A stretch of DNA of 64,000 bases, taken from positions 1-64,000 of IMG/VR virus record IMGVR_UViG_3300010938_000006. The stretch is one strand, 5' to 3'. The position numbers were made by a program, and so were the translations under genes. This document shows positions 5,792-52,759 of this stretch, piece by piece (position 1 is the first letter of the stretch; each line of letters starts with the position of its first letter). The notes under the pieces are model-generated. The model saw nothing but the letters and a program-made list of their open reading frames with translations. It made no database searches and had not been told where the DNA came from. The DNA is from a virus.

Positions 5792-6326
5792 ATAAGCTCT
5801 TCTTCATTCTACCTTGAGGAGTAATTCCTAAAGAAGAAAGTTTTTGTTCGTACTCTTTTAATATACCAAAAACTTGTTCAGTTGTAAAGTTGTTTACTTT
5901 ATCTTCTAAAAATTCAATTTCTAAATATCGAGCTTGTTCTTTTAATTCTGGATCATATACAATATAGTACACAATATCTACATTTTGATAGTAATAAATA
6001 AAACAATACTTAAAGATTTTAAAGTTTTGTTTGTATCCTTCTAAAGCTACAAAAGATTCGACTAAGCTTTCATCACTAGGTCTTAGTGGTAAATTTATTT
6101 CAATGCGATCTTGATTATTAGATTCAGTTGTTTTTCTTTTTATTGTAAGTTCTGGCTTTTCTTTACTATTTCTATACCTTATAAAATTACTTTCTTTATT
6201 AATATAGTATGTATCCCAACTAGATACTTCTAAATGTCGTAGTGGATTCAAAGTCTTAGCGACTTTATGAAAGTCACTCAACTTAATATCATTAGCATTG
6301 AATTTAAATTCGTATTCTTTATTCAT
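5748..6326 (-). CDS. CYTH-like (triphosphate tunnel metalloenzyme) domain protein
   Basis: N-terminal EYEFKF (ExExK signature) followed by alternating charged strands ELTIKRK and RIEINL. Confidence 0.45.
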   Translation of the reverse strand: MNKEYEFKFNANDIKLSDFHKVAKTLNPLRHLEVSSWDTYYINKESNFIRYRNSKEKPELTIKRKTTESNNQDRIEINLPLRPSDESLVESFVALEGYKQNFKIFKYCFIYYYQNVDIVYYIVYDPELKEQARYLEIEFLEDKVNNFTTEQVFGILKEYEQKLSSLGITPQGRMKKSLFELYKNETPSRNSK

Positions 6327-6543
6327 ACAGCATTTTAATTATAGCAGCATTGCCTTTTGTGATCAATATATATTTATCTAAATTACAAAAATCAGTTTTA
6401 TGGTAGAATCATTTATCGTAATTGAAGTCTTTGCAACGATAATAATAAGATTCATCAATTATATCTAAAATTTGTATTACAATAGATCCAGAAATTAAGC
6501 AATCATTTTTGTTAAACTTAGGGGCGTAAGCCTCTTTTTTCAT
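6319..6543 (-). pseudogene. LLY-tail family small ORF interrupted by in-frame TGA (6409-6411)
   Basis: ATG 6543. Reads MKKEAYAPKFNKNDCLISGS...NYDK*FYHK...AAIIKMLYE. The final TATGAATAA overlaps the start of the next gene. Confidence 0.55.
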
Positions 6544-7045
6544 ATAACACTCTCAAATAGTAGTCAATATTTTGTTCGGTGGGAGGTCTAGAACGAAGTA
6601 GAGGGTCCATTAAATCTCCTTGGTCCTCAATTTCTTTATCTACATGCGAAACATTATAACAGTGTAATAGTTCATGTAAAAGAACTATACGAATTTCATA
6701 GTCCTTAAGACTATCTGATAATTCTATATAACAGTACAAAGGATTGACATAGGAAGATCCTAATCGTACATAATCGTCAACATCTTGTGAAGAATCTACA
6801 ATATTTACAACAATAGGTCTTAATCCAAAGGTAAAACTAAATAATTTGCCATCTAACCTTTTATTGAATTCTGCAGCGTATTCTAAGGTTTTCATTCCTT
6901 CATAGTTATTGTCTAATACAGTAAATACTGGAGCGGGCATAAATATATCTCGCTCTCTAAGAATAGTTGATATTCTTATCCCAACGTACAGGTTTATAGC
7001 TATGGTCATTAAAATCATGCTTAAATTTTTAATGAATTTTATCAT
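6518..7045 (-). CDS. membrane-anchored zinc metalloprotease (HExxH)
   Basis: N-terminal TM helix and HELLHCYNVSH zinc-binding motif. Confidence 0.5.
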   Translation of the reverse strand: MIKFIKNLSMILMTIAINLYVGIRISTILRERDIFMPAPVFTVLDNNYEGMKTLEYAAEFNKRLDGKLFSFTFGLRPIVVNIVDSSQDVDDYVRLGSSYVNPLYCYIELSDSLKDYEIRIVLLHELLHCYNVSHVDKEIEDQGDLMDPLLRSRPPTEQNIDYYLRVLYEKRGLRP

Positions 7046-7046
7046 A

Positions 7047-9338: not shown

Positions 9339-10365
9339 TTACCCTATCCACTGCTTCTTTAAATTCTTGTGGTTCTAGACCTAGAGATATTCTAACATAT
9401 TCCGGCTTACCAAACAAGTCTCCATTAAGAACTTTTACTTTAGCAGCTTCAAAAGCTTTATCACATTTTGAACCTTTAGGAAGAAAAGCAAACATGCCAT
9501 TAGGAGACATAAACTTTACGTCTGCGATATCTTTATGCAGTGTTTTAAGTACTGTCCTATTCATAGCAAAATCTTTTTGACATAAAGTAACAAAATCATT
9601 GTATATTTCTGGTTTAGAATCAAACAGTTGTTCTAATTTTAATACTATTTGTTGGGAAGCAGAAGACACTCCAGTTGTTGTAATTTCCATATATTCAGAT
9701 GCTAATTCAGCATAAGTAGCATTATTAGTAGCTAAATATCCTATTCTAAGTCCTGATAATCCTAAGGATTTTGAATATGAGTGTATATACATTGAACAAC
9801 TATTCTCTAATCCAAATAAGGTTGGTAAATATATTTTAGAATTATAAGCTCCATCATGAATGAGAGGTAAGTTATCTGCTTGACAATCCATGTTAAAAGC
9901 ATCAAAATCTTGTTGATTCATCATATACCCATCTGGATTATTGGGTAGCGTTAATAAAATAGCTGTTTGATCATCTATCAGCGTATTACTATGAATTACA
10001 TTTAAATCCTCTTTTAAGGCTAGGGTGGGGAAACTTACCCAATAAGGTATTGGTATATATACAGAATCGTAACCTTGGGCCTTTACGGCAGCAAAGGAGG
10101 ATGATATAGCTTGCTTTGCACCATTTGTTATCACGATATATTTATAGCCCGTTTTGTTCTTTAAAAACTCTACTAATTCTGGTATTCCAGTAGAAGGTTT
10201 ATATTCGTGCGTAAGTATGTCATTATTACAGACAATATGGTTGTTTACCCCATGCTTATCTAATACAGATTTAAGGTTAATAGATACTAACTTAGGCTCG
10301 CCTACAGCTAAGTTAATCCAACCTGGAGCCAATTCTTTTCTTAACTGTAAATCAGGTTTACTCAT
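9325..10365 (-). CDS. PLP-dependent aminotransferase (class I/II fold)
   Basis: PLP-lysine motif YSKSLGLSGLRIGY and LPNNPDG, in a 346-aa fold-type I length protein. Its 3' end overlaps the polA ATG. Confidence 0.75.
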   Translation of the reverse strand: MSKPDLQLRKELAPGWINLAVGEPKLVSINLKSVLDKHGVNNHIVCNNDILTHEYKPSTGIPELVEFLKNKTGYKYIVITNGAKQAISSSFAAVKAQGYDSVYIPIPYWVSFPTLALKEDLNVIHSNTLIDDQTAILLTLPNNPDGYMMNQQDFDAFNMDCQADNLPLIHDGAYNSKIYLPTLFGLENSCSMYIHSYSKSLGLSGLRIGYLATNNATYAELASEYMEITTTGVSSASQQIVLKLEQLFDSKPEIYNDFVTLCQKDFAMNRTVLKTLHKDIADVKFMSPNGMFAFLPKGSKCDKAFEAAKVKVLNGDLFGKPEYVRISLGLEPQEFKEAVDRVNAQI

Positions 10366-10441
10366 ATAAGTGCTTGGTTACCTTTTTTGCTCGTTTTGCC
10401 CCTCTTTGTAACAAATATTCGTAAGTCCGTTCACCAGTCAT
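10358..10441 (-). CDS. 27-aa mini-ORF ending HLYE
   Basis: MTGERTYEYLLQRGAKRAKKVTKHLYE. Its TATGAGTAA end embeds the aminotransferase ATG. Confidence 0.3.
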   Translation of the reverse strand: MTGERTYEYLLQRGAKRAKKVTKHLYE

Positions 10442-10450
10442 AGGAACTGT

Positions 10451-10690
10451 TTATATATATTTAGCAAAGTCATTTAACATATTATGGTGTAACAATACGT
10501 CATATTTTATGTGTTTTGGGCTGTTCTTATTTTTAAGAACTTTGGCCTTTATTTTAAGAGCAAATTTTTTATTATTTTCTACTTGTAATATCATTCCATC
10601 TGATAGGATAAGAATATCTTCTATTTCACAATCTTGGATATCCTTATAAGTACCAGTTTTATACCAAATATTCAATACATCAGTTCCCAT
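10451..10690 (-). CDS. hypothetical protein
   Basis: 79-aa ORF. Confidence 0.5.
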   Translation of the reverse strand: MGTDVLNIWYKTGTYKDIQDCEIEDILILSDGMILQVENNKKFALKIKAKVLKNKNSPKHIKYDVLLHHNMLNDFAKYI

Positions 10691-10919
10691 ATAGAATTTT
10701 TATGGCTTTACCAGTCATTTTAGTTATTTGACCTTTATTGAACATTAATTGATTAAACATATAATGTTTACTATTAGAATTCTTTCTCTTTCCAAAAATT
10801 ATTTTGCCGTAGCCAAAAGCTTTATTTCTACCCCAAACTTTAATTATGATTGTGCCATTGATAGGGCTTTTAATTTGAATGATAGAGCCTTTCCTTATAC
10901 TCTTCCATTCTTGTTTCAT
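10680..10919 (-). CDS. LLY-tail family small protein
   Basis: Ends KAIKILYGN. Has an SH3-like GSIIQIKSP strand. Confidence 0.55.
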   Translation of the reverse strand: MKQEWKSIRKGSIIQIKSPINGTIIIKVWGRNKAFGYGKIIFGKRKNSNSKHYMFNQLMFNKGQITKMTGKAIKILYGN

Positions 10920-16412: not shown

Positions 16413-17683
16413 TTTTTATCTTTCCTAAATCTGATAAATACTGGATGCCGCATAGAATTATCTTCTGTGACTTCCATATATTTTATCTCAATATAAGTAC
16501 CTAAATACTTATCTCTATTATTCCATACTTCTTTCCGTTCGTCAATTGTAAAGCCAGTACCTACATCCACTTTTACGCCATTAAAATCCACAGTAACTCC
16601 TCCTAAAGTACCCACAAAACTTTCTTCTCCTTCATAAAAACCAATGATTTTACCATCATAAGTTTCTATAGGTTTAACTTTCATAATAATATTAGCTTTA
16701 AGAGTAGGTCTTTTCCATTGATACTCTGCATCAGGATTTCTTAACATAAGACCTTCATAATTATTATTTAAATATTTTTTATATAGGTCTTTTACTTCTT
16801 TCGCATTATTGCATTTATCGGTTGCAACATCAATTATACGTTTATAATCTGCAACCTGGTCATTAAGAACTTCTCTTAGAATTTTAAGACGTTCTTCATA
16901 AGGAATAGTACATTTTTGCTTATCCCAGTCTTTAATAGGGATGCAGTCAAAAACTACATATTTTAGCCCTTTCGGGATTTCTGCGTCCTCTGTAGTAAGA
17001 GTAGAGGCTATGTTGTTAAAATTCTCATTATGAATGTATAGCTCACCATCTAATACATACTTATACATGCCTTCTAATGCTTTAAAATGCTCTAGGAGCT
17101 TAGGGTTCTCATAAACCTTACCCGCCCTAGTCAAAAACTTAGAAGCTCCTCGCTGAGGCCAATATATGGCCCTAAAACCATCCATTTTAGGACTAGCTAA
17201 GACAGGGTATTTAATGGCGCTCAAATTAGGCACATCATTAGGTGCTAAAAGTACTTTAAAATCTGTCACCTTAAAAAACTTTTCAGCAGATGTTCCTTTC
17301 AGTCCCTTATTAAAAGTAGTTACTCCTACACCTACTGCTGCTTTTCTTAATATAATCGAGTAGATACCTTCATCTTCAGGAGCCATATTACTAAAAACTC
17401 GTACAACCTCCTGTTTAGCCGCATTTCCTGTTATTTTTCTACTGCTTAGGTCTTGCGCCAGTTGATTAAAGCTTATATAGGATCGTCTAAAATCCCAAAA
17501 TTTTTCTATAGCTATTTCATAGTCTGGAATCTTTTTAATGTAAAATTGGGTATAAGGATCAAGATTGTAAAATAACAATTGAAGAAAATAATCGTTATCG
17601 CTATGCTTTTTAATAAAAGCTTCCTTTTCCGTATTGGAAGACATTTCCATTAATTCACTTATTAGTTTTGTTGGATTCGTCAT
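16409..17683 (-). CDS. ATP-dependent DNA ligase
   Basis: Adenylation motif SPKMDGFR (KxDG), EGLMLR, C-terminal OB-like region. Confidence 0.85.
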   Translation of the reverse strand: MTNPTKLISELMEMSSNTEKEAFIKKHSDNDYFLQLLFYNLDPYTQFYIKKIPDYEIAIEKFWDFRRSYISFNQLAQDLSSRKITGNAAKQEVVRVFSNMAPEDEGIYSIILRKAAVGVGVTTFNKGLKGTSAEKFFKVTDFKVLLAPNDVPNLSAIKYPVLASPKMDGFRAIYWPQRGASKFLTRAGKVYENPKLLEHFKALEGMYKYVLDGELYIHNENFNNIASTLTTEDAEIPKGLKYVVFDCIPIKDWDKQKCTIPYEERLKILREVLNDQVADYKRIIDVATDKCNNAKEVKDLYKKYLNNNYEGLMLRNPDAEYQWKRPTLKANIIMKVKPIETYDGKIIGFYEGEESFVGTLGGVTVDFNGVKVDVGTGFTIDERKEVWNNRDKYLGTYIEIKYMEVTEDNSMRHPVFIRFRKDKK

Positions 17684-17837
17684 ACAAAATTTCTTTCATT
17701 TTAGTGTTTTCTAAAGAAGCGATTTTAATTTTAGTCATTAAATCTATCCCATAGATTGCAAAAATTTTCTGTAAATCATCAATGTCAGTGATTTTAACAA
17801 TTTTGGCAGGCTTATAATACTTGCTAACCAAGTACAT
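17655..17837 (-). CDS. hypothetical protein
   Basis: 60-aa ORF. Confidence 0.4.
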   Translation of the reverse strand: MYLVSKYYKPAKIVKITDIDDLQKIFAIYGIDLMTKIKIASLENTKMKEILYDESNKTNK

Positions 17838-22996: not shown

Positions 22997-23434
22997 CTAT
23001 TTTATTTCTGTAGTGTCTGTAAGTAGGTCTAATGTAAGCATTACTACTTTGTTCATATCTTTAGCGCCGTATTTTGTATAGTCTTTTCCGCCATCAATAA
23101 AAGTGTCGTTGGGACATCCACAATAAATAAAATGATGTCTATTTATACTGTATAAGACAGTATCACATTCATGACAATACAAAGCATCTTGAAATCTCCA
23201 TTTATCCATTTCTTCTTGAGTCATTCCTCTAACACAATTGAGTGGTGGGCCATTTAACAATAAATAATCTTTGTGGCCTTTTTTTCTATTGGGTTTGGCT
23301 ACTTTATAAACAGCTACAGGATGATATTCATTATTAACGCAGAATTCATTAAGAAACGTAAGTCCACCTTCAAACATTTTGTTTACTTTTTTGTGATCAA
23401 ATCCGTAATATTCAGCTTTTTTAATTTTACTCAT
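22997..23434 (-). CDS. hypothetical zinc-finger protein
   Basis: CHECD...HHFIYCGCPN. Start set to ATG 23434, in an ATGA overlap with the upstream LYG stop. Confidence 0.5.
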   Translation of the reverse strand: MSKIKKAEYYGFDHKKVNKMFEGGLTFLNEFCVNNEYHPVAVYKVAKPNRKKGHKDYLLLNGPPLNCVRGMTQEEMDKWRFQDALYCHECDTVLYSINRHHFIYCGCPNDTFIDGGKDYTKYGAKDMNKVVMLTLDLLTDTTEIK

Positions 23435-23676
23435 CCGTATAAATCCTGAGATATAGGAGTACAACCAGTGTGCATTATTTTAGAGAATTGTTCTCCAGTA
23501 TAATTGAGTACTTTATACTTTTGCGTGTCAAACATAAATACTACGTAGGGTTCTCTGTTATAATTCATAAGTCCCCAAGCGGCGACAGCCATTGGATTTA
23601 CATTAATATACAGGTCATTAGTTTGCTGCCCGTATTCTGTATCTATCTTTCTAAGTTGTAGCTCTATAAATTTCAC
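23431..23676 (-). CDS. LLY-tail family small protein
   Basis: Ends ISQDLYG. Confidence 0.55.
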   Translation of the reverse strand: MKFIELQLRKIDTEYGQQTNDLYINVNPMAVAAWGLMNYNREPYVVFMFDTQKYKVLNYTGEQFSKIMHTGCTPISQDLYG

Positions 23677-24155: not shown

Positions 24156-24386
24156 TTACTTCGCATATAAACCTTCTGCCACTGAAGATCGTCCCACAAT
24201 AAATTTCATAATAGGTTCTCCAGATTCATAAAATTCATAATATGTGCTTCCATTTGGAGAATATTTCGTATGGCTAGAATATTGCTTTTTAGCGTACACG
24301 TATAATACATTATACCCTTCTTTTAACGCTCCTAGTAAATTATACTCGTCTACACTTTTAACATCTGTCCAATATTGTTGTATCAT
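24156..24386 (-). CDS. LLY-tail family small protein
   Basis: Ends VAEGLYAK. Confidence 0.5.
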   Translation of the reverse strand: MIQQYWTDVKSVDEYNLLGALKEGYNVLYVYAKKQYSSHTKYSPNGSTYYEFYESGEPIMKFIVGRSSVAEGLYAK

Positions 24387-24703: not shown

Positions 24704-25324
24704 CTAACACCACCACGAACGCATATTCTTATTTAAATGTTTCCAAAGATCATTCCAATCTTTTTGATGCAATCTGTGAGATTTATTCATTGAAGCACGA
24801 GCTTCTTTATGAATTTGGTCACTATTTTTATTAGTTTCTTTCTCGTACTTGCTAATAGAGCTACGATATGGACGATTTAGCACTTCTTTGGAATTTAAAA
24901 CGTCACATTCAGTGTATCTAATATGCTTGCCATATTTTTCTTCTAAAGGCTTCATACAAGCGTCCCAATGATACATATCATCTTTAGCTCTATTAATCAA
25001 TTCCAAGGCTTTATCCATATTTTTTACATCTTTTTTCCAATGTAAATGGTGATGGTGTTTTTCAACGTGGTCACGAAGACGTTTGATTTTAAATTCCATA
25101 AAATTCAAAATATCGTTATAATCAAAGTCATTCTCCCACCATAGCAAAGAGCGAAATTTCCATATCGTAACAATAAACCTTTTCAAGTCCTTAGCAAAAT
25201 CTAAAGGAATAACTAATACTTCTTTAATATCGTGAGTTAAATCACCAAAAAATTCTTTGCCATTTTCTTTAGCTCTTGAACCTAAACGCTCAAATCGCCA
25301 TTTTAAATCATGTAAGTGAGCCAT
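24704..25324 (-). CDS. hypothetical protein (His-rich HHHLHW)
   Basis: 206-aa ORF. Confidence 0.5.
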   Translation of the reverse strand: MAHLHDLKWRFERLGSRAKENGKEFFGDLTHDIKEVLVIPLDFAKDLKRFIVTIWKFRSLLWWENDFDYNDILNFMEFKIKRLRDHVEKHHHHLHWKKDVKNMDKALELINRAKDDMYHWDACMKPLEEKYGKHIRYTECDVLNSKEVLNRPYRSSISKYEKETNKNSDQIHKEARASMNKSHRLHQKDWNDLWKHLNKNMRSWWC

Positions 25325-25589
25325 AAAGCATCTCCGATATGTTGGTTAAAGGGAAAAATATTCCTGTTTTATCATTAATTCTTTGATATTGTTTTCCGTA
25401 TGGTATATGTCTTACAGATGTATACCCTTCTACGTCTTCAAAAGTTATAGGTTCTCCAGCTAAAACATCCATAGTTTCATTAACAACAATACCTCTTAAC
25501 CAATGTCCATAACTAAAGTCTGGGCCATCTTTTTTAGGACATCCTAATTGATGCCAGAATATTACTTTTGTCCCTAAAGGATATTTCAT
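25308..25589 (-). CDS. LLY-tail family small protein
   Basis: Ends ISEMLYGSLT. Confidence 0.5.
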   Translation of the reverse strand: MKYPLGTKVIFWHQLGCPKKDGPDFSYGHWLRGIVVNETMDVLAGEPITFEDVEGYTSVRHIPYGKQYQRINDKTGIFFPLTNISEMLYGSLT

Positions 25590-26458
25590 CGTATTCTATC
25601 TAAATTAGTATAAATCGGCTTACCCTTTACTTTTTTTACGAAAGTAGGCCAAACTATACCATATTTCTTAATAACTCTATTTATAACGGCCCACACTGCA
25701 TCTTCACTCATTTTAAGGCTTTTTGCTGCATCAGTCAATTGCATATTTTGTATAAAAACTTTGTTCAATATTTTCAATTGCTTCTTATTTAAATTATTTT
25801 CATTCTCTTCAATAAACTTACGCATGATAGCGAATTTACTTAGTTTTGTTAAAGCATAGTATATAGTGTACTTGGCTTTGTCTTCATTAAGGAGTCCGAA
25901 TTTGTCTGCTACATATTTAAAATCATTACCTTTAAAGAAATACTGTTGTACCATATCTTGCTTTCGCTTACTCAAACAATCCCAAGGTAATTCTAAATTA
26001 GAATTTGGAAATAGGCTTATAATTTCAGCCCCTTCAGTGTACTCTTCTGAGGAATATTCCAGGTTCTCTTTATACATAAGATAAGGCTCTTCTATCTTAT
26101 TCCTGTGCATAAAATCGTTTATTTGTCCACAGGGGGAATCGCAAGTGGCTTTTATGGGACAAGTGTCACACCTACTAATAAAAAGTTCGCCTTGGGCAAT
26201 ATTTTGAGTTTTAGCTAATTCGTCAAGATAAGGTTTAGCCGTAGGGCTTTTCCAAGGTAAAGGCCGACCAATACACTCTTTACCTATACATACGGCTCTT
26301 TTAGGGCATTCATCATAACTTTGACCATAAATATCTATACATTCTTGCTTAATTTGTCTAAGAATTTCAAAGCGTTTATCAAATGGAATAAGAGAATACC
26401 AAGGAGGTAAACTACAAGCAGGAGGCTTATTTTGTTCTTTCCATTTTTTTTCATCCAT
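25586..26458 (-). CDS. Cys-rich protein with C-terminal HTH (sigma region-4-like)
   Basis: LTDAAKSLKMSEDAVWAVINRVIKKYG helix-turn-helix plus several N-terminal Cys pairs. Confidence 0.3.
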   Translation of the reverse strand: MDEKKWKEQNKPPACSLPPWYSLIPFDKRFEILRQIKQECIDIYGQSYDECPKRAVCIGKECIGRPLPWKSPTAKPYLDELAKTQNIAQGELFISRCDTCPIKATCDSPCGQINDFMHRNKIEEPYLMYKENLEYSSEEYTEGAEIISLFPNSNLELPWDCLSKRKQDMVQQYFFKGNDFKYVADKFGLLNEDKAKYTIYYALTKLSKFAIMRKFIEENENNLNKKQLKILNKVFIQNMQLTDAAKSLKMSEDAVWAVINRVIKKYGIVWPTFVKKVKGKPIYTNLDRIR

Positions 26459-26753
26459 AAAGTAACTTCAAAAACTTTATTTTTTTATTGGTTTTTTGTT
26501 TACTTATACTAGTGAAGATTCTAGTATCATTATCAATTTCATAACAAAATACTGTAGTGTAATGATTACTAATATCTAACTTACTTGTATAGATATTAGT
26601 ATATACTAAATTTACAGAATATCTAGTAATTTTATGTGGCCTAGTTTCCCAAGTAGAATCAGAAATGTCATCTTCTAAAATAGAAGTGACTATGTAATAG
26701 TTTAAATCTCGTATATTCTTTAAAATATCACCTATCTTTAGATTCTTGTTCAT
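26451..26753 (-). CDS. LLY-tail family small protein
   Basis: LKIGDILKNI near the N-terminus. Ends KFLKLLYG. Confidence 0.55.
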   Translation of the reverse strand: MNKNLKIGDILKNIRDLNYYIVTSILEDDISDSTWETRPHKITRYSVNLVYTNIYTSKLDISNHYTTVFCYEIDNDTRIFTSISKQKTNKKIKFLKLLYG

Positions 26754-27483
26754 ATTGTTTAATCAGTCGATTAGTGAATATCGCCGTGCTTTGACTAGTT
26801 CCTGACATCTTAATACCAAATCCTTCAACATTTAGTCCATTTTCACATTGTCTAACTGGGCCACCGTAATTAGAACTAGCAACATATTTACCATCTTTGC
26901 AATTACCTACTGCATAAAGATTACCAGTTGTGTCTGGTACACATGCAGGATAGTATTGGCATTTAGCAGTCAAATTATTACCATCATTGCCAGCAGCTAC
27001 AGCAATTTTAATGCCTTTCTTAAGAGCTACAGTAACTATTTCTGTTTCTTTTTTAGAAGGGTCTAAGCCACCGCCACTAAAATTAATAAATTTGACATCT
27101 TGTTTAACTGCTTCTTCAAAAGAAGCGATTTCGTTATTGAGATTACTAAATGCTTGACTACCGTTACTGTAATATCTATATATAACTAAACAGAATTTTG
27201 TTGTATCTAGATTTCTAGATACTATACCTGCGATATTGGTGCCATGCCCATGTTTATCTTCTATCCCACCGCCCACAAAATCTTTATGCCCAGTTTTACA
27301 TAGAAATTTGGTTGTAGTATCATTTAGAGTTATGCCTGTATCAATAATAGCCACTTTAACTCTAGTTTCAAGAATAGCAGGCTCACGATTGATAATCGTT
27401 TCTTTATAGGCATCTTCTTTTCTACAAGAAGTAAAGCAAAGTAATAAACTTATTTTGAATATTAGTAACTTTTTCATAGGCAT
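26728..27483 (-). CDS. subtilisin-like (S8) serine protease, lipoprotein
   Basis: Triad contexts AIIDTGI, HGHGTNIAG, SGTSQSTA. Signal peptide with lipobox LLLCFTSC. Confidence 0.8.
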   Translation of the reverse strand: MPMKKLLIFKISLLLCFTSCRKEDAYKETIINREPAILETRVKVAIIDTGITLNDTTTKFLCKTGHKDFVGGGIEDKHGHGTNIAGIVSRNLDTTKFCLVIYRYYSNGSQAFSNLNNEIASFEEAVKQDVKFINFSGGGLDPSKKETEIVTVALKKGIKIAVAAGNDGNNLTAKCQYYPACVPDTTGNLYAVGNCKDGKYVASSNYGGPVRQCENGLNVEGFGIKMSGTSQSTAIFTNRLIKQYEQESKDR

Positions 27484-37799: not shown

Positions 37800-38015
37800 T
37801 TACTCATTATACAAGAGTTTTATCATTTTTTTATTTGTCACTGGTAAACACAATGTTTCCAGCTTTTCAGTGTAGTAAGCTTTGTATTCTTCTGTATTTT
37901 TATTATACAGACTATAAAGATTGCCTTTAGTGGTTTTTCTAACTGACCGTATTTCCCACGTAGTTTTATCTCTTAAATGAAAGTAAACTTACCCTATTTT
38001 ATGCGTCTTAGCCAT
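37800..38015 (-). pseudogene. LLY-tail family ORF interrupted by in-frame TAA (37989-37991)
   Basis: ATG 38015 is embedded in the upstream TATGGCTAA. Reads MAKTHKIG*VYFHLRDKTTWEIRS...NKKMIKLLYNE. Confidence 0.55.
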
Positions 38016-38286
38016 ATAACTTTTGTACCGTATCTTTACTAACACTTCTATCAAAAACTTTCCAGCTATTGATAGTGTCTCTTAATGTGATAAAATCTAT
38101 AGTAATAATCAACCAGTTATATTGTTCGTTATTAACTAGTTTTCGTTTTACTACTATTGCTCCCATTTGTATAGCAGATATAGTATATATCCCACTTGCG
38201 GGTAACTTAAATCCTAAAACACTACCTTTATCGTTTGATATTACTAGATAGTGTCCTATTTTAAATTGTGATATAAATTCACTCAT
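38008..38286 (-). CDS. LLY-tail family small protein
   Basis: FKIGHYLVISN near the N-terminus. Ends TVQKLYG. Confidence 0.55.
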   Translation of the reverse strand: MSEFISQFKIGHYLVISNDKGSVLGFKLPASGIYTISAIQMGAIVVKRKLVNNEQYNWLIITIDFITLRDTINSWKVFDRSVSKDTVQKLYG

Positions 38287-40641: not shown

Positions 40642-40878
40642 TTAATTATACAGAATAAAGTCCATCTTGGATGCTTTTTTTATTAGCTTACATCTCATAT
40701 CTATACTCTCACAACTAATCCTAGCTTTTTTCCCAGTACTGTAACAATATAGTTCGTATTGAGCGTATTTGATAGCTAATTCATTAATTACTTTACATAT
40801 CAAAAAGATTTGAGATTGCGCTAGTGGGCGGGGTGCGACTGTAACTTGAATTATATCTCCAGCTTTAAACTTAGTCAT
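40642..40878 (-). CDS. LLY-tail family small protein
   Basis: FKAGDIIQV near the N-terminus. Ends MDFILYN. Confidence 0.55.
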   Translation of the reverse strand: MTKFKAGDIIQVTVAPRPLAQSQIFLICKVINELAIKYAQYELYCYSTGKKARISCESIDMRCKLIKKASKMDFILYN

Positions 40879-41155
40879 AAAGTAATTGTAGTAGTTTTTG
40901 TGAAACTAAAATACTATTTTTATTTAAAGATAAAACAGGGTAATCACAATTAAACCCATTAAGGCTATTAATTCCTGTATGCCGTACTAGTAACCCATTG
41001 TCACTTTTAGGATATCTGTTCTCATATATCAAAGTGATGTTATAAAAAGACTTTTCTTTATAGAGAATAGCTTCAATTCTGTAGACTTCTATGTTGCCTT
41101 CTTCATCATATAGTAACACATGGTCGCCACAATAAAAATTTCCTTTACTCTCCAT
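40871..41155 (-). CDS. LLY-tail family small protein
   Basis: FYCGDHVLLY near the N-terminus. Ends LLQLLYD. Confidence 0.55.
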   Translation of the reverse strand: MESKGNFYCGDHVLLYDEEGNIEVYRIEAILYKEKSFYNITLIYENRYPKSDNGLLVRHTGINSLNGFNCDYPVLSLNKNSILVSQKLLQLLYD

Positions 41156-41386
41156 ATAGCAATGGTCCTAGTTTACCTGCAGGCATAACTAGTTCTGATT
41201 TTGGATCAAATCTTTCTGCGCTCCACTCATAAACCTTTGGTTTCTTTGCATTAACAAACTTAACTTTATACTTAGCATATCCACTAGCAGTAAACAAGAC
41301 ACATTCAATAATAGCTTTAGACTTACCAAATTGCCCTTTGGTAAGAACAATATCGCCCGCATTAAATTTATAAGTTTTATTCTCCA
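41145..41386 (-). CDS. LLY-tail family small protein
   Basis: Start set to ATG 41386 (MENKTYKFNAGDIVL...). Ends LGPLLYGE. Confidence 0.55.
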
Positions 41387-41571
41387 TATAAATCTTCAAC
41401 CATTATACTCTCTCGTATTTTAAATGCAATACCATCTACCCAATTAACAAAAGCTGTTGCCTGATTATCTTGTTTATACAGCTTATGTATTTTAAATCAG
41501 TTTTTAAAAAATAGATTGTCAATTCAATAAACATTAGATACAATCCTCTCCGTCTTTGTGCCCCACATCAT
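41377..41571 (-). pseudogene. LLY-tail family ORF with two in-frame TGA (41524-41526, 41497-41499)
   Basis: MMWGTKTERIVSNVY*IDNLFFKN*FKIHKLYKQDNQATAFVNWVDGIAFKIRESIMVEDLYGE. The end embeds the next ATG. Confidence 0.5.
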
Positions 41572-41758: not shown

Positions 41759-42096
41759 AGGTATTCCCCTCTATCAGACTTCTTACAGTCCGTATTCATA
41801 ACGAAATACTTAGGTATAGTGAACATCAATACACCATCACCATCCCAATAATAACACATAAGAGTAACTGTTTCAAAATTCAAGTAGGTATTATCTTTAA
41901 TATCATCGTAGCTACAATCCATTAGCACGGCAGCACTGTGAATTAAATCATATCCATCAAGCGTGCTATCATCAATGCGCTTGTAGTCTCTATGAACAAG
42001 AAAGGTACTATAACAACCGTAATCGTCTTCTCTTAGCTTAACAAAAGCCTCATCTCTTAACTGTTCACCTAAAAAATTTGGACTAGTCTTACTCAT
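41755..42096 (-). CDS. hypothetical protein
   Basis: Start set to ATG 42096 (MSKTSPNFLGE...), embedded in the upstream TATGAGTAA. Confidence 0.5.
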   Translation of the reverse strand: MSKTSPNFLGEQLRDEAFVKLREDDYGCYSTFLVHRDYKRIDDSTLDGYDLIHSAAVLMDCSYDDIKDNTYLNFETVTLMCYYWDGDGVLMFTIPKYFVMNTDCKKSDRGEYL

Positions 42097-42295
42097 ACAG
42101 TTGTTTAGCCATAGCAGTATTAGGTATTGCTTCAAATATGTAACCGTAGTTGCGAGCCTGAGCTAAAGTGTCCAAATCTTTCTGTGTAGCGTGTTTAGTT
42201 ACTATATAACCATATATTTCAGTTGCGTCTTTAGCTTCTTTAAGACCAAAATTAAAGACAGTACGTAATTCTTTAATGTAATTAAAATCAATCAT
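42089..42295 (-). CDS. LLY-tail family small protein
   Basis: Ends TAMAKQLYE. Confidence 0.5.
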   Translation of the reverse strand: MIDFNYIKELRTVFNFGLKEAKDATEIYGYIVTKHATQKDLDTLAQARNYGYIFEAIPNTAMAKQLYE

Positions 42296-42584
42296 TGTCA
42301 GTTAAATATAGCATAGAGCCTAGTTTGGTATCAATAGGCATTATTGTATCTAGTGGTGTCCACATTCCCATTTTATATTCTTCAATGAAGTGGTCCATCT
42401 CTCTCCAAAATTCATACTTCTTATGCTTACGGCTACGTATTACTGTATAGCTATCGGCTCCCACTAATTTCTTTAAACTTATAGATACAATAGGCCCACT
42501 TCCATTTTTACGGCGCACTTTAGTAACTAGAACATTAAACCTATCTCCAAACGCATTAAATTGCATCATGCGTCCTTTTACCAT
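42288..42584 (-). CDS. LLY-tail family small protein
   Basis: Ends LGSMLYLTDND. Confidence 0.5.
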   Translation of the reverse strand: MVKGRMMQFNAFGDRFNVLVTKVRRKNGSGPIVSISLKKLVGADSYTVIRSRKHKKYEFWREMDHFIEEYKMGMWTPLDTIMPIDTKLGSMLYLTDND

Positions 42585-43187: not shown

Positions 43188-43469
43188 TTACTCTCCGTAT
43201 AATTATAGCAATATCTTATCATTTCGCAATATCTTTTTAGTATATTTTACTAAAGTCTTTTGTCTAAATGTTGTGGTTTGTCCACTAAATGATTTATTTA
43301 AAGCCATTACTTGCCACTCTTGTCTATTCTTATCTCTTGATTTCTTCAATTGTTTCAATATTAATAGTTCTGGTAGACTTGCAAAATTGCCTTCTAGAAT
43401 ATCGCCAACTTTTATATGATTAATTGACTCCATATAATAATCGTCCAAATTTTGAACCGATAATTTCAT
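43188..43469 (-). pseudogene. LLY-tail family ORF whose conserved tail lies beyond an in-frame TAA (43203-43205)
   Basis: ...IKVGDILEGN...KKILRNDKILL*LYGE, then TAA at 43188-43190. The family C-terminus LYGE is only reached by reading through the first TAA. Confidence 0.6.
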
Positions 43470-43626
43470 AATTCTCTAGTAAAATAGACCTTTCTACACG
43501 ATGTGCAAAACCTTGCCTATCCAAAATAATATATTGATCTCCATCCTTTAAGATGATTACAAATACGTTTTTAGTGCGTTTATTTATTGCAAAGTTGCCG
43601 ATTGTAATTGACATGATACTACCCAT
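43420..43626 (-). CDS. LLY-tail family small protein
   Basis: Ends KFGRLLYGVN. Confidence 0.55.
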   Translation of the reverse strand: MGSIMSITIGNFAINKRTKNVFVIILKDGDQYIILDRQGFAHRVERSILLENYEIIGSKFGRLLYGVN

Positions 43627-44803: not shown

Positions 44804-44811
44804 AGGTGCTT

Positions 44812-45201
44812 ATGCAAGAATTCTGTATTGGAGACATCGTACAACTTAGAGATGGTAACGTTTATAAAATTGAGAACATTCGATATATTCCTCGTGGCCA
44901 TGCTAAAGACGGTATAGGTGGTAATCTGTATACGTTGCATTGCATTACATTTCCCGAAGAATATAAAAGTTATTATGAGACTAGGATGCGTAATGAGGCA
45001 TTAGTTGTGCAATTCTCAAATCAAGTTGACGATAAGTTTATTGAGACTATTAGCGATCCAATGCCTGCAATCGGCGTACCCGCATTAGATAAAAGTGTTA
45101 AGAGTACCTCTAAACTTAAACCTATTGACACTAGGCCGCTTGCTAAAGTTTATATCCTAGCAGAATATAGACAACGTAAACAACTTAGACGCCGTGCCTA
45201 A
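44812..45201 (+). CDS. hypothetical protein with SH3-like FCIGDIVQLRDG strand
   Basis: SD TAGAGGTGCTT then ATG 44812. Confidence 0.55.
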   Translation: MQEFCIGDIVQLRDGNVYKIENIRYIPRGHAKDGIGGNLYTLHCITFPEEYKSYYETRMRNEALVVQFSNQVDDKFIETISDPMPAIGVPALDKSVKSTSKLKPIDTRPLAKVYILAEYRQRKQLRRRA

Positions 45202-47939: not shown

Positions 47940-47945
47940 GGATAT

Positions 47946-50027: not shown

Positions 50028-50306
50028 ATGCACGAGCTCTATATAGTAACTAAGTGCCTACAAGCTTTGAACCTAGACTTAATAGGATTCCCTCAAATGA
50101 TTATGATTATTAAGGTAGGAAGTATAGTCAAGGTTAATAGAGAACATACTATCATAGATACAGTAAATAAAGAAAACAAAATACATAATATATACATAGA
50201 CTTAATCCATCCTAGCTTAGCTAATAATCTATTAGTAAATAGAAAATCCTTCTACGAGTATACAGAGAAGTTCAAAGGACCAATGGTAGACCTCCTATAC
50301 AAATAA
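50028..50306 (+). CDS. LLY-tail family small protein
   Basis: IKVGSIVKVNREH strand. Ends MVDLLYK. The true start may be the internal MIMII. Confidence 0.5.
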   Translation: MHELYIVTKCLQALNLDLIGFPQMIMIIKVGSIVKVNREHTIIDTVNKENKIHNIYIDLIHPSLANNLLVNRKSFYEYTEKFKGPMVDLLYK

Positions 50307-50316
50307 GGGGGGGGGG
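50307..50316. repeat. G10 homopolymer
   Basis: Run of 10 G directly after the stop of the 50028 ORF, followed by AGTATACCC. Confidence 0.9.
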
Positions 50317-50438: not shown

Positions 50439-50798
50439 ATGGATTACCATATGCAACAAATAGCAGAATATATCTATATAGCCTTAAGCAGTAAATACTG
50501 CCATACTCCTTTACTTACTAGTGATCAACCTAAGCCTATATACTTATCTAAGCATAGATTCAAAGTAGCTATGAATAAATTAGTAGATAAGCCTGGATAT
50601 GAAATTATATTACAAATTGAAGTTCCTGATATACGAAAGTTCTATAATATCAAGTATATATTATCTAATATCTATGATATAGTATGCGTAGATTATACTA
50701 TTATTAAGACAGCTATATATTACTTTGAGAATGAACTAAAGAAGGTATTTGTAAGAGTACAAGATACTGAAATGACTAGAGTATTATATGAATTGTAA
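50439..50798 (+). CDS. LLY-tail family protein
   Basis: Ends MTRVLYEL. Confidence 0.5.
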   Translation: MDYHMQQIAEYIYIALSSKYCHTPLLTSDQPKPIYLSKHRFKVAMNKLVDKPGYEIILQIEVPDIRKFYNIKYILSNIYDIVCVDYTIIKTAIYYFENELKKVFVRVQDTEMTRVLYEL

Positions 50799-50884: not shown

Positions 50885-50995
50885 GACTACCCTATTGACA
50901 CCATTTCGCTTTTCTGTTAAACTATAATAGTGAGCATAAAAATCTTTAATTACTCCGGCCTTATAGTTTCTAGCCCGTAATGGAACACATGGAGT

Positions 50996-51199
50996 ATAGA
51001 TAATTGTAGTTTTAAATTTGACCAACGAGTTGTAGTTACAGGTCAATATTTAAACGACCAAATAGTTCACGTTACTATTCATTGCCCTGAAACTGCTGCC
51101 CTTTCAGCTATGCAGATAGTCATGACTGAAGAACAACTTTATAAGATGGTATTACCTATAAATACTAATATTTCCAAGACTTTATATGCTTCCGAGTAA
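50996..51199 (+). pseudogene. LLY-tail family ORF without a canonical start (ATA at 50996)
   Basis: Frame is open from 50981: (ATA)DNCSFKFDQRVVVTGQYLNDQIVHVTIH...ISKTLYASE. No ATG/GTG/TTG until late in the frame. The end embeds the next ATG. Confidence 0.45.
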
Positions 51200-51467
51200 T
51201 GATTGGATAGATACGGCTGGTGTTAGTTGTTATCAATATAAAGCTGTGGTTGTTAATCAGTCTATAGAACAGTTTATGCATTTTGAGGTTGGGACTAAGG
51301 TTATAATCCATTATATACTTAAGGATAATAAAGTAATTAGTATATTAGTACTCAATCCTAAAACTGGTGTACAAATGATATTTGATTCTGTTTTTTCCAG
51401 CATTGAAGAAATTAATAAGACTTTCCTTAATATAAACATTAGGTTAGCGAAGAAACTATATGAGTGA
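51186..51467 (+). CDS. LLY-tail family small protein
   Basis: Ends RLAKKLYE. Confidence 0.55.
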   Translation: MLPSNDWIDTAGVSCYQYKAVVVNQSIEQFMHFEVGTKVIIHYILKDNKVISILVLNPKTGVQMIFDSVFSSIEEINKTFLNINIRLAKKLYE

Positions 51468-51954
51468 TAAATATAAGATTTTTCCTGAAGACTCTAAGGC
51501 TTGGCCCTTTGAGGCTAAAAGTGGTTTAGTAGAAGAATTACAAAAACAACAATACGAAACTAAATTACGGAAAATGGAACACATTATTCGTGCCTATCCA
51601 GGCTCTATAGATAGCACTATTAAGCCTAATCTAAATTCTAAAGAACGTATTAAAGAACGATTAGAGCAACAATTAACTAATATTGAAAAAGATTTAGAGA
51701 ATATAAAACAAAATTTAGATAGAATTCCTAATATTAAATACGACGTTGGTATGGCAGTATTTCATAAAAGTATGGGTAATGCCATTATTACTAATATTTA
51801 TTTGAATGAAATGGACGGTATTAATTTGCCAGTCCAGGCCGACTTTACTGATGGTTATGTATACGAGATCGTTGGCGTACAAGGCAAATTTAAGGCTAGA
51901 GAGCATGAGCTAATACCAATAACCGAACTTACTACTAATCTTTACTGCAAATGA
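51460..51954 (+). CDS. LLY-tail family protein (longer, coiled-coil N-half)
   Basis: Ends LTTNLYCK. Confidence 0.5.
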   Translation: MSDKYKIFPEDSKAWPFEAKSGLVEELQKQQYETKLRKMEHIIRAYPGSIDSTIKPNLNSKERIKERLEQQLTNIEKDLENIKQNLDRIPNIKYDVGMAVFHKSMGNAIITNIYLNEMDGINLPVQADFTDGYVYEIVGVQGKFKAREHELIPITELTTNLYCK

Positions 51955-52244
51955 GCGTAAATTGCTTATATGAACCAGGCGAATTAGTAAAGCTAATTAC
52001 GCACGAAATTCATGAAGAAGGTAGAGCTATTTCTGAATATTGGGAATATTGGATAGTTACTGGAGTTTATTTAGTTACGGAAATTGATACTTATGAATAC
52101 TCTTCTAGAACTCCTTGTTTTACTTATACTTTAGTAAGCATAGCTGACAGACAAAGAAAAACGATAAATATACCGGAACATAAGCTAATCCCCTTAACCG
52201 ATTCAGAGGAGTCTTATATAAGGCTATTATATGGCCAGAAATAG
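51951..52244 (+). CDS. LLY-tail family small protein
   Basis: YEPGELVKLI strand. Ends YIRLLYGQK. Confidence 0.55.
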   Translation: MSVNCLYEPGELVKLITHEIHEEGRAISEYWEYWIVTGVYLVTEIDTYEYSSRTPCFTYTLVSIADRQRKTINIPEHKLIPLTDSEESYIRLLYGQK

Positions 52245-52482
52245 GTCTAGGTTCGCTTTGGGTGACTTTGTTGGGTTCAGAGATCCAAATGCACTCAATT
52301 ATCAAATACAGGGCGAAATATTCAAAATTACAGGCATATGGGAATACAATCCTGCATCTAAACTTTATACATATAGAATAGAGCACGTAGCTTTGCGCCA
52401 CCTCTCTTTCATAACAAGTGAGAATAACTTATTAAAAGTAAAGAAGAATCAAGCTAAAATCATACATCTAATATATGGGTAA
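52231..52482 (+). CDS. LLY-tail family small protein
   Basis: FALGDFVGFRD strand. Ends KIIHLIYG. Confidence 0.55.
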   Translation: MARNRSRFALGDFVGFRDPNALNYQIQGEIFKITGIWEYNPASKLYTYRIEHVALRHLSFITSENNLLKVKKNQAKIIHLIYG

Positions 52483-52759
52483 ACGTAGATTTAAAGAAAA
52501 TGATATTGTTTTATTTAAGGCTCCTCCTACAGCTAAACAGGCTGGAATGACCTTAAAACATTCACTTTTATATAAACGTTATGGTCTATTCCAAATTATA
52601 ACCCTTCGAGATAGTGATTGTTTAGTAGTTCCGTATACTTCTGAAATGACTAAAGATTCAAAAGAAAAGATTTTAGGTATATGGATATCTTATAATAAAA
52701 TTAAATACTTAGGCAATCCCCAATCCAACCATCTAGTAGAAATCCTCTACAAAAAGTAA
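52475..52759 (+). CDS. LLY-tail family small protein
   Basis: FKENDIVLFK strand. Ends LVEILYKK. Confidence 0.55.
   Translation: MGKRRFKENDIVLFKAPPTAKQAGMTLKHSLLYKRYGLFQIITLRDSDCLVVPYTSEMTKDSKEKILGIWISYNKIKYLGNPQSNHLVEILYKK

Follow-up and report, generated by a model that had tools for sequence, protein, structure and literature searches.

In bacteriophage T4 the tails of gp43, gp55 and gp33 bind the gp45 clamp. Some multigene families of viruses, such as the ankyrin/PRANC (F-box-like) proteins of poxviruses, combine variable heads with a docking motif that is conserved at the C-terminus, and proteasome activators carry the HbYX motif, hydrophobic-Tyr-X-COOH. Many known C-terminal docking systems need the free C-terminal carboxylate. 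The partners of ClpP dock via internal IGF loops and not via their C-termini.

Large uncultured phages have many small early genes of unknown function. Here we describe an uncultured phage of ~115 kb in which some 30 small, rapidly evolving early genes share a C-terminal hydrophobic-Leu-Tyr-Gly ending. The window, that is the whole stretch of DNA analysed, is 64,000 nucleotides long (positions 1 to 64,000 of IMG/VR record IMGVR_UViG_3300010938_000006). The initial annotation, made from the letters alone, had reported at least 33 such open reading frames of about 27-165 aa; the observation is confirmed, with 31 coding-strand frames of 39-164 aa that end in [LI]-Y-x(1-8) in our count. Almost all of the tails it listed (ILYGN, DLYG, LIYG, LLYG and so on) were located, as were the N-terminal x-x-G-D-Φ-Φ strands it quoted and tandem runs at 40.6-43.6 kb (minus strand) and 50.0-52.8 kb (plus strand). 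Its remark on in-frame stops is borne out too: 23 copies are apparently intact and eight are disrupted, whether by an in-frame stop (TGA, TAA or TAG), by lack of a start codon or by truncation at the 5' end. The copies are as follows, with one tail-less relative at the end.

6319..6543, minus: disrupted copy (in-frame TGA), N-terminal APKFNKNDCLI, tail AAIIKMLYE; the ATG embedded in the tail starts a 192-aa gene (5748-6326)
10358..10690, minus: split frame (in-frame TAA), tail KVTKHLYE; embedded ATG starts an aminotransferase gene
10680..10919, minus: intact 79-aa copy, tail KAIKILYGN; embedded ATG starts the next gene
17655..17837, minus: 60-aa ORF, tail-like KEILYDESNKTNK; embedded ATG starts the DNA ligase gene; the orthologue in relative L004 ends GLLYE
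23431..23676, minus: 81-aa ORF without the N-terminal G-D strand, tail PISQDLYG, TAC Tyr codon
23896..24075, minus: 59-aa copy, tail NIAGLIYG
24156..24386, minus: 76-aa ORF, tail SVAEGLYAK
25308..25589, minus: 93-aa copy, tail NISEMLYGSLT; embedded ATG starts a 206-aa gene
26451..26753, minus: 100-aa copy, N-terminal LKIGDIL, tail FLKLLYG; embedded ATG starts a sigma-like 290-aa gene
27422..27658, minus: 78-aa copy, N-terminal FKYGDIIQY, tail FITLLYFL, TAC Tyr codon
27648..27875, minus: disrupted copy (in-frame TAG), N-terminal LNVGDLV, tail EIAKQLYGK
29709..29915, minus: 68-codon frame without a start codon, tail IEKELYG; embedded ATG starts a 190-aa RNase T-like gene
31298..31615, minus: 105-aa ORF, tail ELGTTLYGQ
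37800..38015, minus: disrupted copy (TAA at codon 9), tail MIKLLYNE; the L001 orthologue (5278-5493) is intact
38008..38286, minus: 92-aa copy, N-terminal FKIGHYLV, tail TVQKLYG
40642..40878, minus: 78-aa copy, N-terminal FKAGDIIQV, tail MDFILYN; last gene of its run, without an embedded ATG
40871..41155, minus: 94-aa copy, tail LLQLLYD, body replaced relative to L001
41145..41387, minus: 80-aa copy, N-terminal FNAGDIVL, tail KLGPLLYGE
41377..41496, minus: 5'-truncated remnant, tail IMVEDLYGE; the gene is intact in L001 (1523-1807)
42089..42295, minus: 68-aa protein with an L7/L12 C-terminal-domain-like body, tail TAMAKQLYE
42288..42584, minus: 98-aa ORF, tail KLGSMLYLTDND
43188..43469, minus: disrupted copy, N-terminal IKVGDILEG; a TAA cuts the tail (KILL-stop-LYGE-stop)
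43420..43626, minus: 68-aa copy, tail KFGRLLYGVN; embedded ATG starts the 43188-43469 gene at MESINHIKVGD
50028..50306, plus: copy with IKVGSIVKV, tail PMVDLLYK, TAC Tyr codon; no close downstream gene
50439..50798, plus: 119-aa ORF, tail EMTRVLYEL
50981..51199, plus: 72-codon frame without a canonical start, N-terminal FKFDQRVVV, tail NISKTLYASE
51186..51467, plus: 93-aa copy, tail RLAKKLYE
51460..51954, plus: 164-aa protein with a charged-residue-rich N-terminal extension and a C-terminal family domain (IKYDVGMAV), tail ELTTNLYCK, TAC Tyr codon
51951..52244, plus: 97-aa copy, tail SYIRLLYGQK
52231..52482, plus: 83-aa copy, N-terminal FALGDFVGF, tail KIIHLIYG
52475..52759, plus: 94-aa copy, N-terminal FKENDIVLF, tail LVEILYKK, TAC Tyr codon; last in its run
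44806..45201, plus: tail-less relative of 131 aa, N-terminal CIGDIVQL

The shared tail is far in excess of expectation. The 112 window proteins include 25 in which the Tyr of an [LI]Y lies 0-5 residues from the C-terminus, where 5.6 would be expected (P 2e-9); these are 23 of the 80 proteins of at most 170 aa and two of the 32 larger ones. In the relatives L005, L006 and L007, with helicases only 44-50% identical to that of the window phage, the enrichment is repeated (38 against 6.2 expected, P 7e-18). Altogether, 25-40% of the small early genes in one clade share this single short peptide, which opens dozens of orphan proteins to experiment at once, through a peptide for pull-downs and a Leu-Tyr pair to mutate.

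Bodies of the tail-bearing proteins

The initial annotation had allowed that the copies might not align outside their last four residues. This is not what we find: the tail is longer (Φ-Φ-P-Φ-[TDN]-x-x-Φ-[AG]-[KE]-Φ-L-[YF]-G), co-occurs with the G-D strand and leaves, when trimmed off, leave-one-out profiles that recognise about half of the members. The N-terminal F-K-x-G-D-Φ-Φ motif is found with the tail in 26/58 cases as against 9/84 (Fisher P 4e-6), and a core paralogous family therefore exists; the best-scoring non-member against the tail-trimmed profile is the tail-less protein at 44806..45201. When both ends are trimmed the middles barely align, with 5 of 42 members above the background 95th percentile; the background set of the trimmed-profile test was filtered, which makes that test partly circular. 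The tail helix is conserved among phages with helicases 44-50% identical, while the bodies between the ends diverge beyond alignment and are even swapped between near-identical genomes: the gene at 40871-41155 and its L001 counterpart are ~50% identical in the body and ~97% at both ends (the ends at the nucleotide level).

As the initial annotation had found, the family is unrecognised: Pfam, PHROGs and the PDB gave no match to it, and an exhaustive family profile search of 1.84 billion (1.84e9) representative proteins returned self matches only. The SH3/Tudor-like fold that had been proposed for the bodies is a plausible candidate. An AlphaFold2 model of 41145-41387 has five predicted strands and a C-terminal helix (pLDDT 60); the Pfam matches are all sub-threshold singletons (SH3_7, KOW4_SPT5 and YorP, E 0.02-0.08), Phage_tudor (PF24144) reaches at best 12.2 bits against a cut-off of 27, and a Foldseek search of the PDB found no fold match below E 0.3.

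These observations bear on the possibility, which we consider open to doubt but the most serious of the alternatives, that the tail is only structural. In that case it would cap a small SH3/Tudor/KOW-like β-barrel as its C-terminal helix, packed on the conserved N-terminal strand and without a separate function, in an ordinary hypervariable paralogue set. Such a role is consistent with the conservation and co-occurrence of both protein ends, with the predicted strands and terminal helix, with the weak matches to SH3_7, KOW4_SPT5, YorP and Phage_tudor, and with the position of the tail helix, which in the window's clade directly follows a conserved Φ-Φ-P-Φ-[TDN] strand and cap with no long linker. 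Against it, the N-terminal motif is absent from 32 of the 58 tail-bearing small proteins. The Leu at position -1, before the Tyr, is present in 46 of 49 non-redundant tails (94%), although I, V or M would usually be accepted in a packing helix, and no other part of the protein is as well conserved across subclades as the tail.

The tail also behaves partly like a portable module, because some tail-bearing ORFs carry what seem to be other bodies: an L7/L12 C-terminal-domain-like one in the window, and proteins rich in helix-favouring residues and an HNH endonuclease in the relatives. Some of these proteins look helical, and such varied bodies argue against a purely structural tail. Within the window the case for differing bodies is weak: for the protein at 42089-42295, the match to PF00542 is below the Pfam cut-off (22.7 bits against 25.9, E 1.2e-4, 38 of 67 profile positions), and the helical AlphaFold2 model was made from a single sequence (pLDDT 54). 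Both AlphaFold2 models, at pLDDT 60 and 54, are of low confidence. In the distant phage L008 (helicase 34% identical), which has a tandem array with K-Y-K-V-G-D starts, the tails are alignable but different ([VT]-D-Φ-x-x-L-L-K-D-L) and sit after P/T/D/E-rich linkers on varied bodies, an arrangement that likewise speaks against a capping helix.

Candidate roles of the tail

The reading that we prefer, with a probability of about 0.5, is that these genes are a clade-restricted early family under birth-and-death turnover, whose shared C-terminal docking helix also acts as the junction for translational coupling. Most members would have a β-rich body opening with the F-K-x-G-D-Φ-Φ strand, and all would end in the short N-capped helix [TDN]-x-x-Φ-[AG]-[KE]-Φ-L-[YF]-G with 0-5 residues behind it. 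The tail would then be a putative docking peptide tethering many small heads to one shared partner, perhaps a host or phage hub protein early in infection, while the heads may diversify under an arms race. If the tail docks on one hub, this would be a new hub-and-spoke architecture for host takeover or anti-defence. The strand-cap-helix layout, with no long linker, fits an integral capping helix equally well.

One to eight residues follow the tail Tyr, which argues against recognition of a free carboxylate. The Tyr is penultimate in 13 of the 31 window tails and the remainder carry 2-8 residues after it; the terminal residues vary (G, GE, GK, GN, GVN, GQK, KK, EL, ASE, D and N), and the usual form in the relatives is L-Y-G plus 0-4 residues. 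A membrane-targeting amphipathic helix of the MinD type was considered and rejected: the mean hydrophobic moment of the tails is 0.37 as against 0.34 in control C-termini, and they have a net charge near 0 in the window phage and of -0.7 in L008, compared with +2 for E. coli MinD.

It is unlikely that the tail is a universal docking handle that places a quarter or more of the clade's small early proteins on a single hub, for which one could speculatively name a chaperone, a sliding clamp or the phage's ClpP-type protease acting with an unfoldase of the host. If it were, a single platform would serve the phage for a diversifying set of exchangeable heads, an arsenal that might comprise, for instance, adaptors delivering host defence or housekeeping proteins for destruction, and the same DNA would enforce the coupled translation of that arsenal.

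A role for the tail in Clp-type proteolysis, as degradation tag or as adaptor handle, is improbable. Early proteins would then be cleared on schedule, or targets delivered to the phage ClpP. The ClpP-like gene and the S8 protease (26728-27483) to which the initial annotation pointed are indeed in the window, and the former (13294-13908, 116 bits) is a true ClpP homologue within the replication module, with a homologue in every relative examined (L004-L008); the tail also lies at the extreme C-terminus. This co-occurrence of ClpP and tail is, however, only weakly informative because these phages share many genes, and no unfoldase gene was seen. The known C-terminal degrons of ClpX and ClpA need a fixed terminal register, which the tails lack, and the varying terminal residues do not fit an ssrA/ClpX-type degron (fixed-register, terminal L-A-A-COOH-like).

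A T4-type sliding-clamp-binding motif is very unlikely. The T4 tails (NC_000866; gp43 ASLDFLFG*, gp55 PSLDFLYEAND*, gp33 NTLDFLL*) resemble those here in having an S/T cap and the pattern Φ-charged-Φ-L-[FYL]-[G/E], in the varying number of residues that trail behind it, and in being carried by unrelated proteins. Against this, sequence searches with Pfam, PHROGs and the PDB, which covered the window, the flank to its left and the surroundings of the helicase gene in five relatives, detected neither clamp nor clamp loader, and the polymerase is of family A and has no tail. Position -3 is K/E here and D in T4, and position -2 is aliphatic (V/I/L) here and Phe in T4.

Tail DNA doubles as the next gene's start

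The tail Tyr is encoded by TAT rather than TAC in a ratio of 38:3, compared with a background of 74% (P 0.002), and 26:0 in the relatives. G follows TAT in 22 of 25 tails and TAC in two of six (P 0.014), and GGT is depleted at +1 (1/28). Both preferences reflect the start of the next gene, whose ATG is contained in TAT-G; this embedded ATG opens the next ORF in 18 of the 31 copies. The tail DNA is thus used twice, the TAT-G of Tyr-Gly being the start codon of the next gene. The purine-rich [AG]-[KE] codons occupy the expected position of a ribosome-binding site, and the genes of a run may therefore be translationally coupled through the tail.

Could the tail then be free of selection as a peptide, and result from reading the ribosome-binding site, spacer and ATG that serve the next gene in a fixed frame? 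Such a gene-junction artefact, a concern raised in the initial annotation, would explain the TAT excess, the G-starting codon, the purine-rich codons at -3 and -4, the embedded start codons, and the AAGGA that the K-[DEG] codons of L008 spell 7-9 nt upstream of the next ATG. As an account of the peptide it is highly improbable. The six Leu codons are used at -1 as they are in the genome at large (chi-square P 0.53), with free variation in first and third base, whereas Phe is never found there, although TTY codons would fit the same nucleotide pattern. In genes without an overlap upstream, the ATG is not preceded by T at -1 or -3, and a look for families of nucleotide repeats at the junctions found none. 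Tails with TAC or without a downstream gene keep Φ-L-Y, run-end tails without an overlapping downstream gene (40642, 50028, 52475 and 38008) keep L-Y, and L008 tails without a downstream gene still keep their motif. The artefact is largely refuted for positions -2 to 0 and stands only for the third base of the Tyr codon and the +1 codon. The tail is under selection at the protein level, the helix being conserved as protein and not as DNA, and the locus is a clean natural example of dual coding, in which selection on the peptide and selection on the initiation region can be told apart at the level of single codons.

Over 7971-30024 the window agrees letter for letter with another, independent assembly, L009. 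This interval includes four disrupted copies (among them 10358-10690, 27648-27875 and 29709-29915), and these disruptions are therefore not sequencing errors. Individual copies are dispensable, as several are pseudogenes. Stop-codon recoding or programmed readthrough in place of decay is highly improbable: several family genes do hold a single stop, the same in both assemblies over 7971-30024, but TGA, TAA and TAG all occur in-frame and all also terminate well-supported genes, the only tRNA is tRNA-Met with no matching suppressor, one interrupted copy is intact in a relative with neighbouring proteins 93-97% identical, and other copies are truncated or lack start codons.

Comparison with known systems

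The bodies resemble phage SH3/Tudor/KOW proteins (Phage_tudor PF24144, YorP PF09629, SH3_7, KOW4_SPT5) in the N-terminal Φ-K-x-G-D-Φ-V strand, a length of ~70-100 aa and the predicted five-strand topology, but the matches are sub-threshold singletons (E 0.02-0.2) and none of those families is defined by an L-Y-G C-terminus. Roughly one window tail in three has Φ-Y-X as its exact end, as HbYX does; most, however, have 2-8 residues after the Tyr, and the 20S proteasome is absent from this context. With the Tyr penultimate in a minority and its distance from the C-terminus not fixed, the tails do not fit an HbYX docking motif.

The clamp-binding tails of T4 are, like those here, short S/T-capped Φ-x-Φ-L-[FYL]-[G/E] segments at the extreme C-terminus, although T4 carries them on three proteins and this phage on ~30. 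The poxvirus ankyrin/PRANC families are likewise fast-evolving birth-and-death paralogues that share a small conserved C-terminal element; they have no sequence relation to the family described here, whose heads are ~60-aa β-rich domains rather than repeats. Finally, the genes are packed in runs like those of phage operons with stop/start overlaps (ATGA and longer), each downstream ATG being contained in the coding sequence of the gene before it. Unlike the usual overlaps, those here are of 8, 11, 14, 17 or 20 nt and always run through the same conserved Tyr codon, so that one DNA segment is both a protein motif and an initiation region.

A clade-wide C-terminal motif

About 30 small early proteins of this phage end in a conserved peptide with a Φ-L-Y-G-like terminus (Φ, hydrophobic), hereafter the tail, a motif that recurs across the clade and is selected as protein. 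Of the 112 coding-strand proteins of the window, 25 carry [LI]-Tyr with 0-5 residues after the Tyr, whereas the internal rate predicts 5.6 (P 2e-9), so the tail noticed in the initial annotation is real; the Tyr is second- or third-last in 18 of the 25. The tail occurs on 23/80 proteins of up to 170 aa versus 2/32 larger ones. A census from stop-to-stop frames, which brings in copies lacking a start codon or containing in-frame stops, gave 31 copies, 23 of them apparently intact; a multi-copy tail therefore stands, at a count somewhat different from the at least 33 ORFs first listed, and the initial description of tandem runs at 40.6-43.6 kb and 50.0-52.8 kb is confirmed. C-terminally anchored alignments extend the motif beyond four residues to Φ-Φ-P-Φ-[TDN]-x-x-Φ-[AG]-[KE]-Φ-L-[YF]-G (for example ELVMPAGKLGPLLYGE, KLIPLTDSEESYIRLLYGQK, AIPNTAMAKQLYE and LPANSEIAKQLYGK).

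The same ending is found on many 70-130-aa genes in the helicase neighbourhoods of three related phage loci, L005, L006 and L007, whose helicases are 44-50% identical to that of the window (…AVKILYGF, …AMRVLYGK, …LKVLFGD, …AERVLYGE, …IIELLYGT, …IEKLLYAP). There, L-[YF] lies 0-6 residues from the C-terminus in 38 cases versus 6.2 expected (P 7e-18). BLAST detected no orthology between the window members and the tail-bearing proteins of these loci, indicating that the tail outlasts the rest of the protein. In a more distant relative, L008 (helicase 34% identical, GC 47%), about 11 small genes stand in tandem; their products start K-Y-K-V-G-D-x-V and carry a different but alignable tail, [VT]-D-Φ-x-x-L-L-K-[DE]-[LI].

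The window is AT-rich (GC about 32%), with genes on the minus strand to about 44.1 kb and on the plus strand from about 44.3 kb, and belongs to a genome of 114,940 bp. Its gene products include a family A DNA polymerase, a DnaB-like helicase-primase, an ATP-dependent ligase, a PD-(D/E)XK nuclease and a UvsX/RecA-like protein (3465-4400), together with PhoH, a MoxR-type AAA_5 protein and its VWA (DUF2201) partner, a ClpP homologue, an S8 protease, a sigma-like protein and a terminase. No deposited phage matched at nucleotide level when 40-53 kb was compared with phage records by Megablast, cultured phages offer only distant relatives of the terminase and helicase, and more than 200 helicase homologues at 34-53% identity lie on metagenomic contigs of 100-118 kb, which together indicate a large, uncultured phage clade. 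The close relatives come from activated-sludge samples. Searches of viral contigs with one family member and with the AAA_5 gene found no related loci, and a host scan of genome contigs matched only metagenome-assembled genome bins. In several relatives the PolA and helicase genes contain insertions of intein type (Hom_end / LAGLIDADG; L008 12208-15636; P0039, P0074, P0110, P0122 and P0124).

This is a new orphan family. No member scored above threshold in Pfam or PHROGs, and an exhaustive profile search through 1.84e9 representative proteins recovered none but those of the window itself, in agreement with the failure to recognise the family at the outset. The best match in a PDB profile search (MJ1557, …KILYGKETE; E 0.66) was judged a chance resemblance, and the literature on HbYX in phage, Phage_tudor/DUF7210, phage ClpP and paralogous small proteins yielded nothing relevant.

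Tail-coding DNA doubles as the next gene's start site

The usual tail DNA reads xTN-TAT-Gnn-(…)-stop, where the ATG within TAT-G is the start codon of the next gene; this embedded ATG starts the next ORF in 18 of the 31 window copies, and the overlaps are 8, 11, 14, 17 or 20 nt. Codon use reflects this arrangement. In 49 non-redundant tails the Tyr codon is TAT 38 times and TAC 3 times (genomic background 74%, P 0.002), and the ratio is 26:0 in the tails of the relatives. Most tails have a G-initial codon after the Tyr (position +1), with GGT nearly absent (1/28), which points to constraint by the second codon of the next gene; in the window, G follows TAT in 22 of 25 tails versus 2 of 6 for TAC (P 0.014). 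Purines predominate in the codons at -3 and -4 (AAA, GAA, GGA), the place expected for a Shine-Dalgarno-like element, and in L008 the codons for K-[DEG] give the sequence AAGGA, 7-9 nt upstream of the next ATG. Nucleotide-level selection thus accounts for the third base of the Tyr codon and for G/E/D/A after it, and perhaps for part of [AG]-[KE] as well.

The core of the tail lies beyond such an explanation. At -1, 46/49 tails have Leu and none has Phe, the six Leu codons being used as in the genome as a whole (chi-square P 0.53), and -2 is aliphatic in 47/49. Start codons free of overlap with an upstream gene have no tail-like pattern before them, Φ-L-Y is kept in tails with TAC and in run-final tails that have no following gene, and no nucleotide repeat families were found at the junctions. 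The initial annotation had warned that copies failing to align beyond their last four residues would make the tail a nucleotide-level artefact of gene junctions; on the evidence just given we reject a junction-only origin, and recombination sites built on nucleotide repeats are likewise rejected for want of repeat families. Protein motif and junction effect are both present and are separable.

The sigma-like gene (25586-26458, minus strand; 290 aa) has its start codon embedded in the LLYG tail of the gene upstream. Its Sigma70_r4 match is weak, its L007 orthologue has an unmarked Sigma70_r4_2 match on record, and in the orthologues a tail-like segment, …NKV[IL]Y[SN][IV]P…, lies near the C-terminus, 7 residues away from it. 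Between 43.4 and 53.3 kb, predicted promoters and terminators showed no excess over shuffles. Directly upstream of the plus-strand run lies about 1 kb of AT-rich DNA without a convincing ORF (49050-50000) with several direct repeats, imperfect and 37-47 nt long (49507-49798); this stretch may act as a promoter cluster or as an origin of replication. Ten consecutive G (50307-50316), unusual at 32% GC, immediately follow the stop codon of 50028-50306.

Conserved ends, hypervariable middles and birth-and-death turnover

The tail carriers include a core paralogous family whose ends are conserved and whose middles are hypervariable. Pairwise BLAST is weak, the best pairs reaching 27-28% identity over 63-78 aa (E 0.004-0.005). 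An N-terminal Φ-x-G-[DN]-Φ-Φ strand is present in 26/58 tail-bearing versus 9/84 tail-less proteins (P 4e-6), as counted over 142 small proteins of the window and L004-L007. Leave-one-out profiles trimmed of the tail place about half of the members above background, and those trimmed at both ends place 5/42 above the background 95th percentile, in tests made partly circular by the filtering of the background set; the best-scoring "non-members" of the tail-trimmed profiles, 44806-45201 and 43188-43469, are tail-less or tail-damaged relatives. Conservation is concentrated at the two protein ends. The single paralogous family proposed initially therefore holds in part: strand and tail co-occur and half of the members are recognised without the tail, but the middles are seldom recognised and some carriers look unrelated to the rest. 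The latter include 42089-42295, modelled as helical and resembling an L7/L12 C-terminal domain below cut-off (22.7 bits), two carriers rich in helix-favouring residues (L006 1137-1514 and L007 19626-19859), and an HNH endonuclease (L005 2431-2988) ending KKKLYG, in whose tail the start of the sigma-like gene is embedded. A Pyr_excise protein ending KLLYEQV in L001, a close relative of the window, was dropped as evidence for a portable tail; T4 endonuclease V, too, has …KAIYA at its C-terminus, and an ending of this kind may thus belong to the Pyr_excise family itself.

The family undergoes birth-and-death turnover. Flanking proteins of the window and L001 are 93-97% identical, yet the body of 40871-41155 has been replaced, with nucleotide identity of about 50% between ends of about 97%. 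Eight copies are broken.

Broken copies in the window
6319-6543: in-frame TGA
10358-10690: in-frame TAA
27648-27875: in-frame TAG
29709-29915 and 50981-51199: frames without start codons
37800-38015: in-frame TAA, counterpart intact in L001
41377-41496: 5'-truncated remnant
43188-43469: TAA just ahead of the last four codons

The window sequence over 7971-30024 recurs unchanged, save a scaffold gap, in a second assembly from another sample, so the lesions inside that stretch are real. All three stop codons (TGA, TAA and TAG) occur among the lesions and the only tRNA in the window is a tRNA-Met, which identifies the process as gene decay and led us to reject stop-codon recoding; single copies are evidently dispensable. 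The tRNA-Met (CAT; 21717-21792, minus strand) overlaps the N-terminus of a GTG-start ORF, 21388-21753, whose start is thus probably miscalled.

Gene content also differs between these near-identical phages at 41400-42135 and 40288-40593 (L001 994-1536 and 2627-3106), where L001 has the Pyr_excise (endonuclease V-like) gene and an intact HNH_2, and the window an unrelated 113-126-aa ORF and an apparently truncated HNH copy. The product of 35958-36815 (minus strand) has 285 aa and ends …SLLELY; its L001 orthologue (6493-7452) has 319 aa, and the window gene may therefore be truncated or frameshifted at its 3' end.

Readings of the tail

We read the tail as a docking helix for a common partner, at a probability of roughly one half. 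The main rival, a helix that serves purely as a structural cap, strikes us as possible but doubtful. An AlphaFold2 model from 14 paralogues has five strands and a C-terminal helix (pLDDT 60), which is compatible with, though no proof of, an SH3/KOW-like barrel; Foldseek with this low-confidence model gave no match, and a word-indexed search with the 42-member alignment returned 7 near-self matches, so no deeper alignment was available for AlphaFold2. In L008 the tail is placed after P/T/D/E-rich linkers, on bodies that include one rich in helix-favouring residues and another whose N-terminal segment is hydrophobic. A register-dependent motif of the HbYX or ssrA type is rejected because the trailing length, and with it the register relative to the C-terminus, varies, and a MinD-like membrane-targeting helix because the tails are neither cationic nor markedly amphipathic, leaving charge and hydrophobic moment unfit.

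Every relative examined has a ClpP homologue; that of the window (13294-13908, minus strand; 204 aa, 116 bits) lies in the replication module, and a second CLP_protease-family protein, 299 aa long and hydrophobic in its N-terminal segment, is encoded just left of the window (12367-13266 of the left-flank contig L015). This co-occurrence is no evidence of a link between tail and ClpP. The S8 subtilase (26728-27483, minus strand), which has an orthologue in L008, bears a lipoprotein-like signal peptide (MKKLLIFKISLLLCFTSC) and is thus probably exported. Directly upstream of the helicase, a small conserved protein (20076-20330, minus strand) has an aromatic and acidic C-terminus, …RLSFFDEPTN (…FSFFDETN in the related locus L004, …DFRVFFGVE in L007), that resembles SSB-type docking tails.

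The nearest short motif verified in sequence is that of the T4 tails, gp43 …ASLDFLFG*, gp55 …PSLDFLYEAND* and gp33 …NTLDFLL*, which bind the T4 clamp. Like the window tails, they have a cap, a Φ-charged-Φ-L-aromatic-[G/E] pattern and variable trailing residues. Unlike T4, the window phage has a family A polymerase without a tail, and Pfam, PHROGs and PDB sequence searches found no clamp or clamp loader in the window, its left flank or the helicase neighbourhoods of five relatives. Rather than a claim of membership, the likeness to the T4 tails may offer a lead on the mechanism of the tail.
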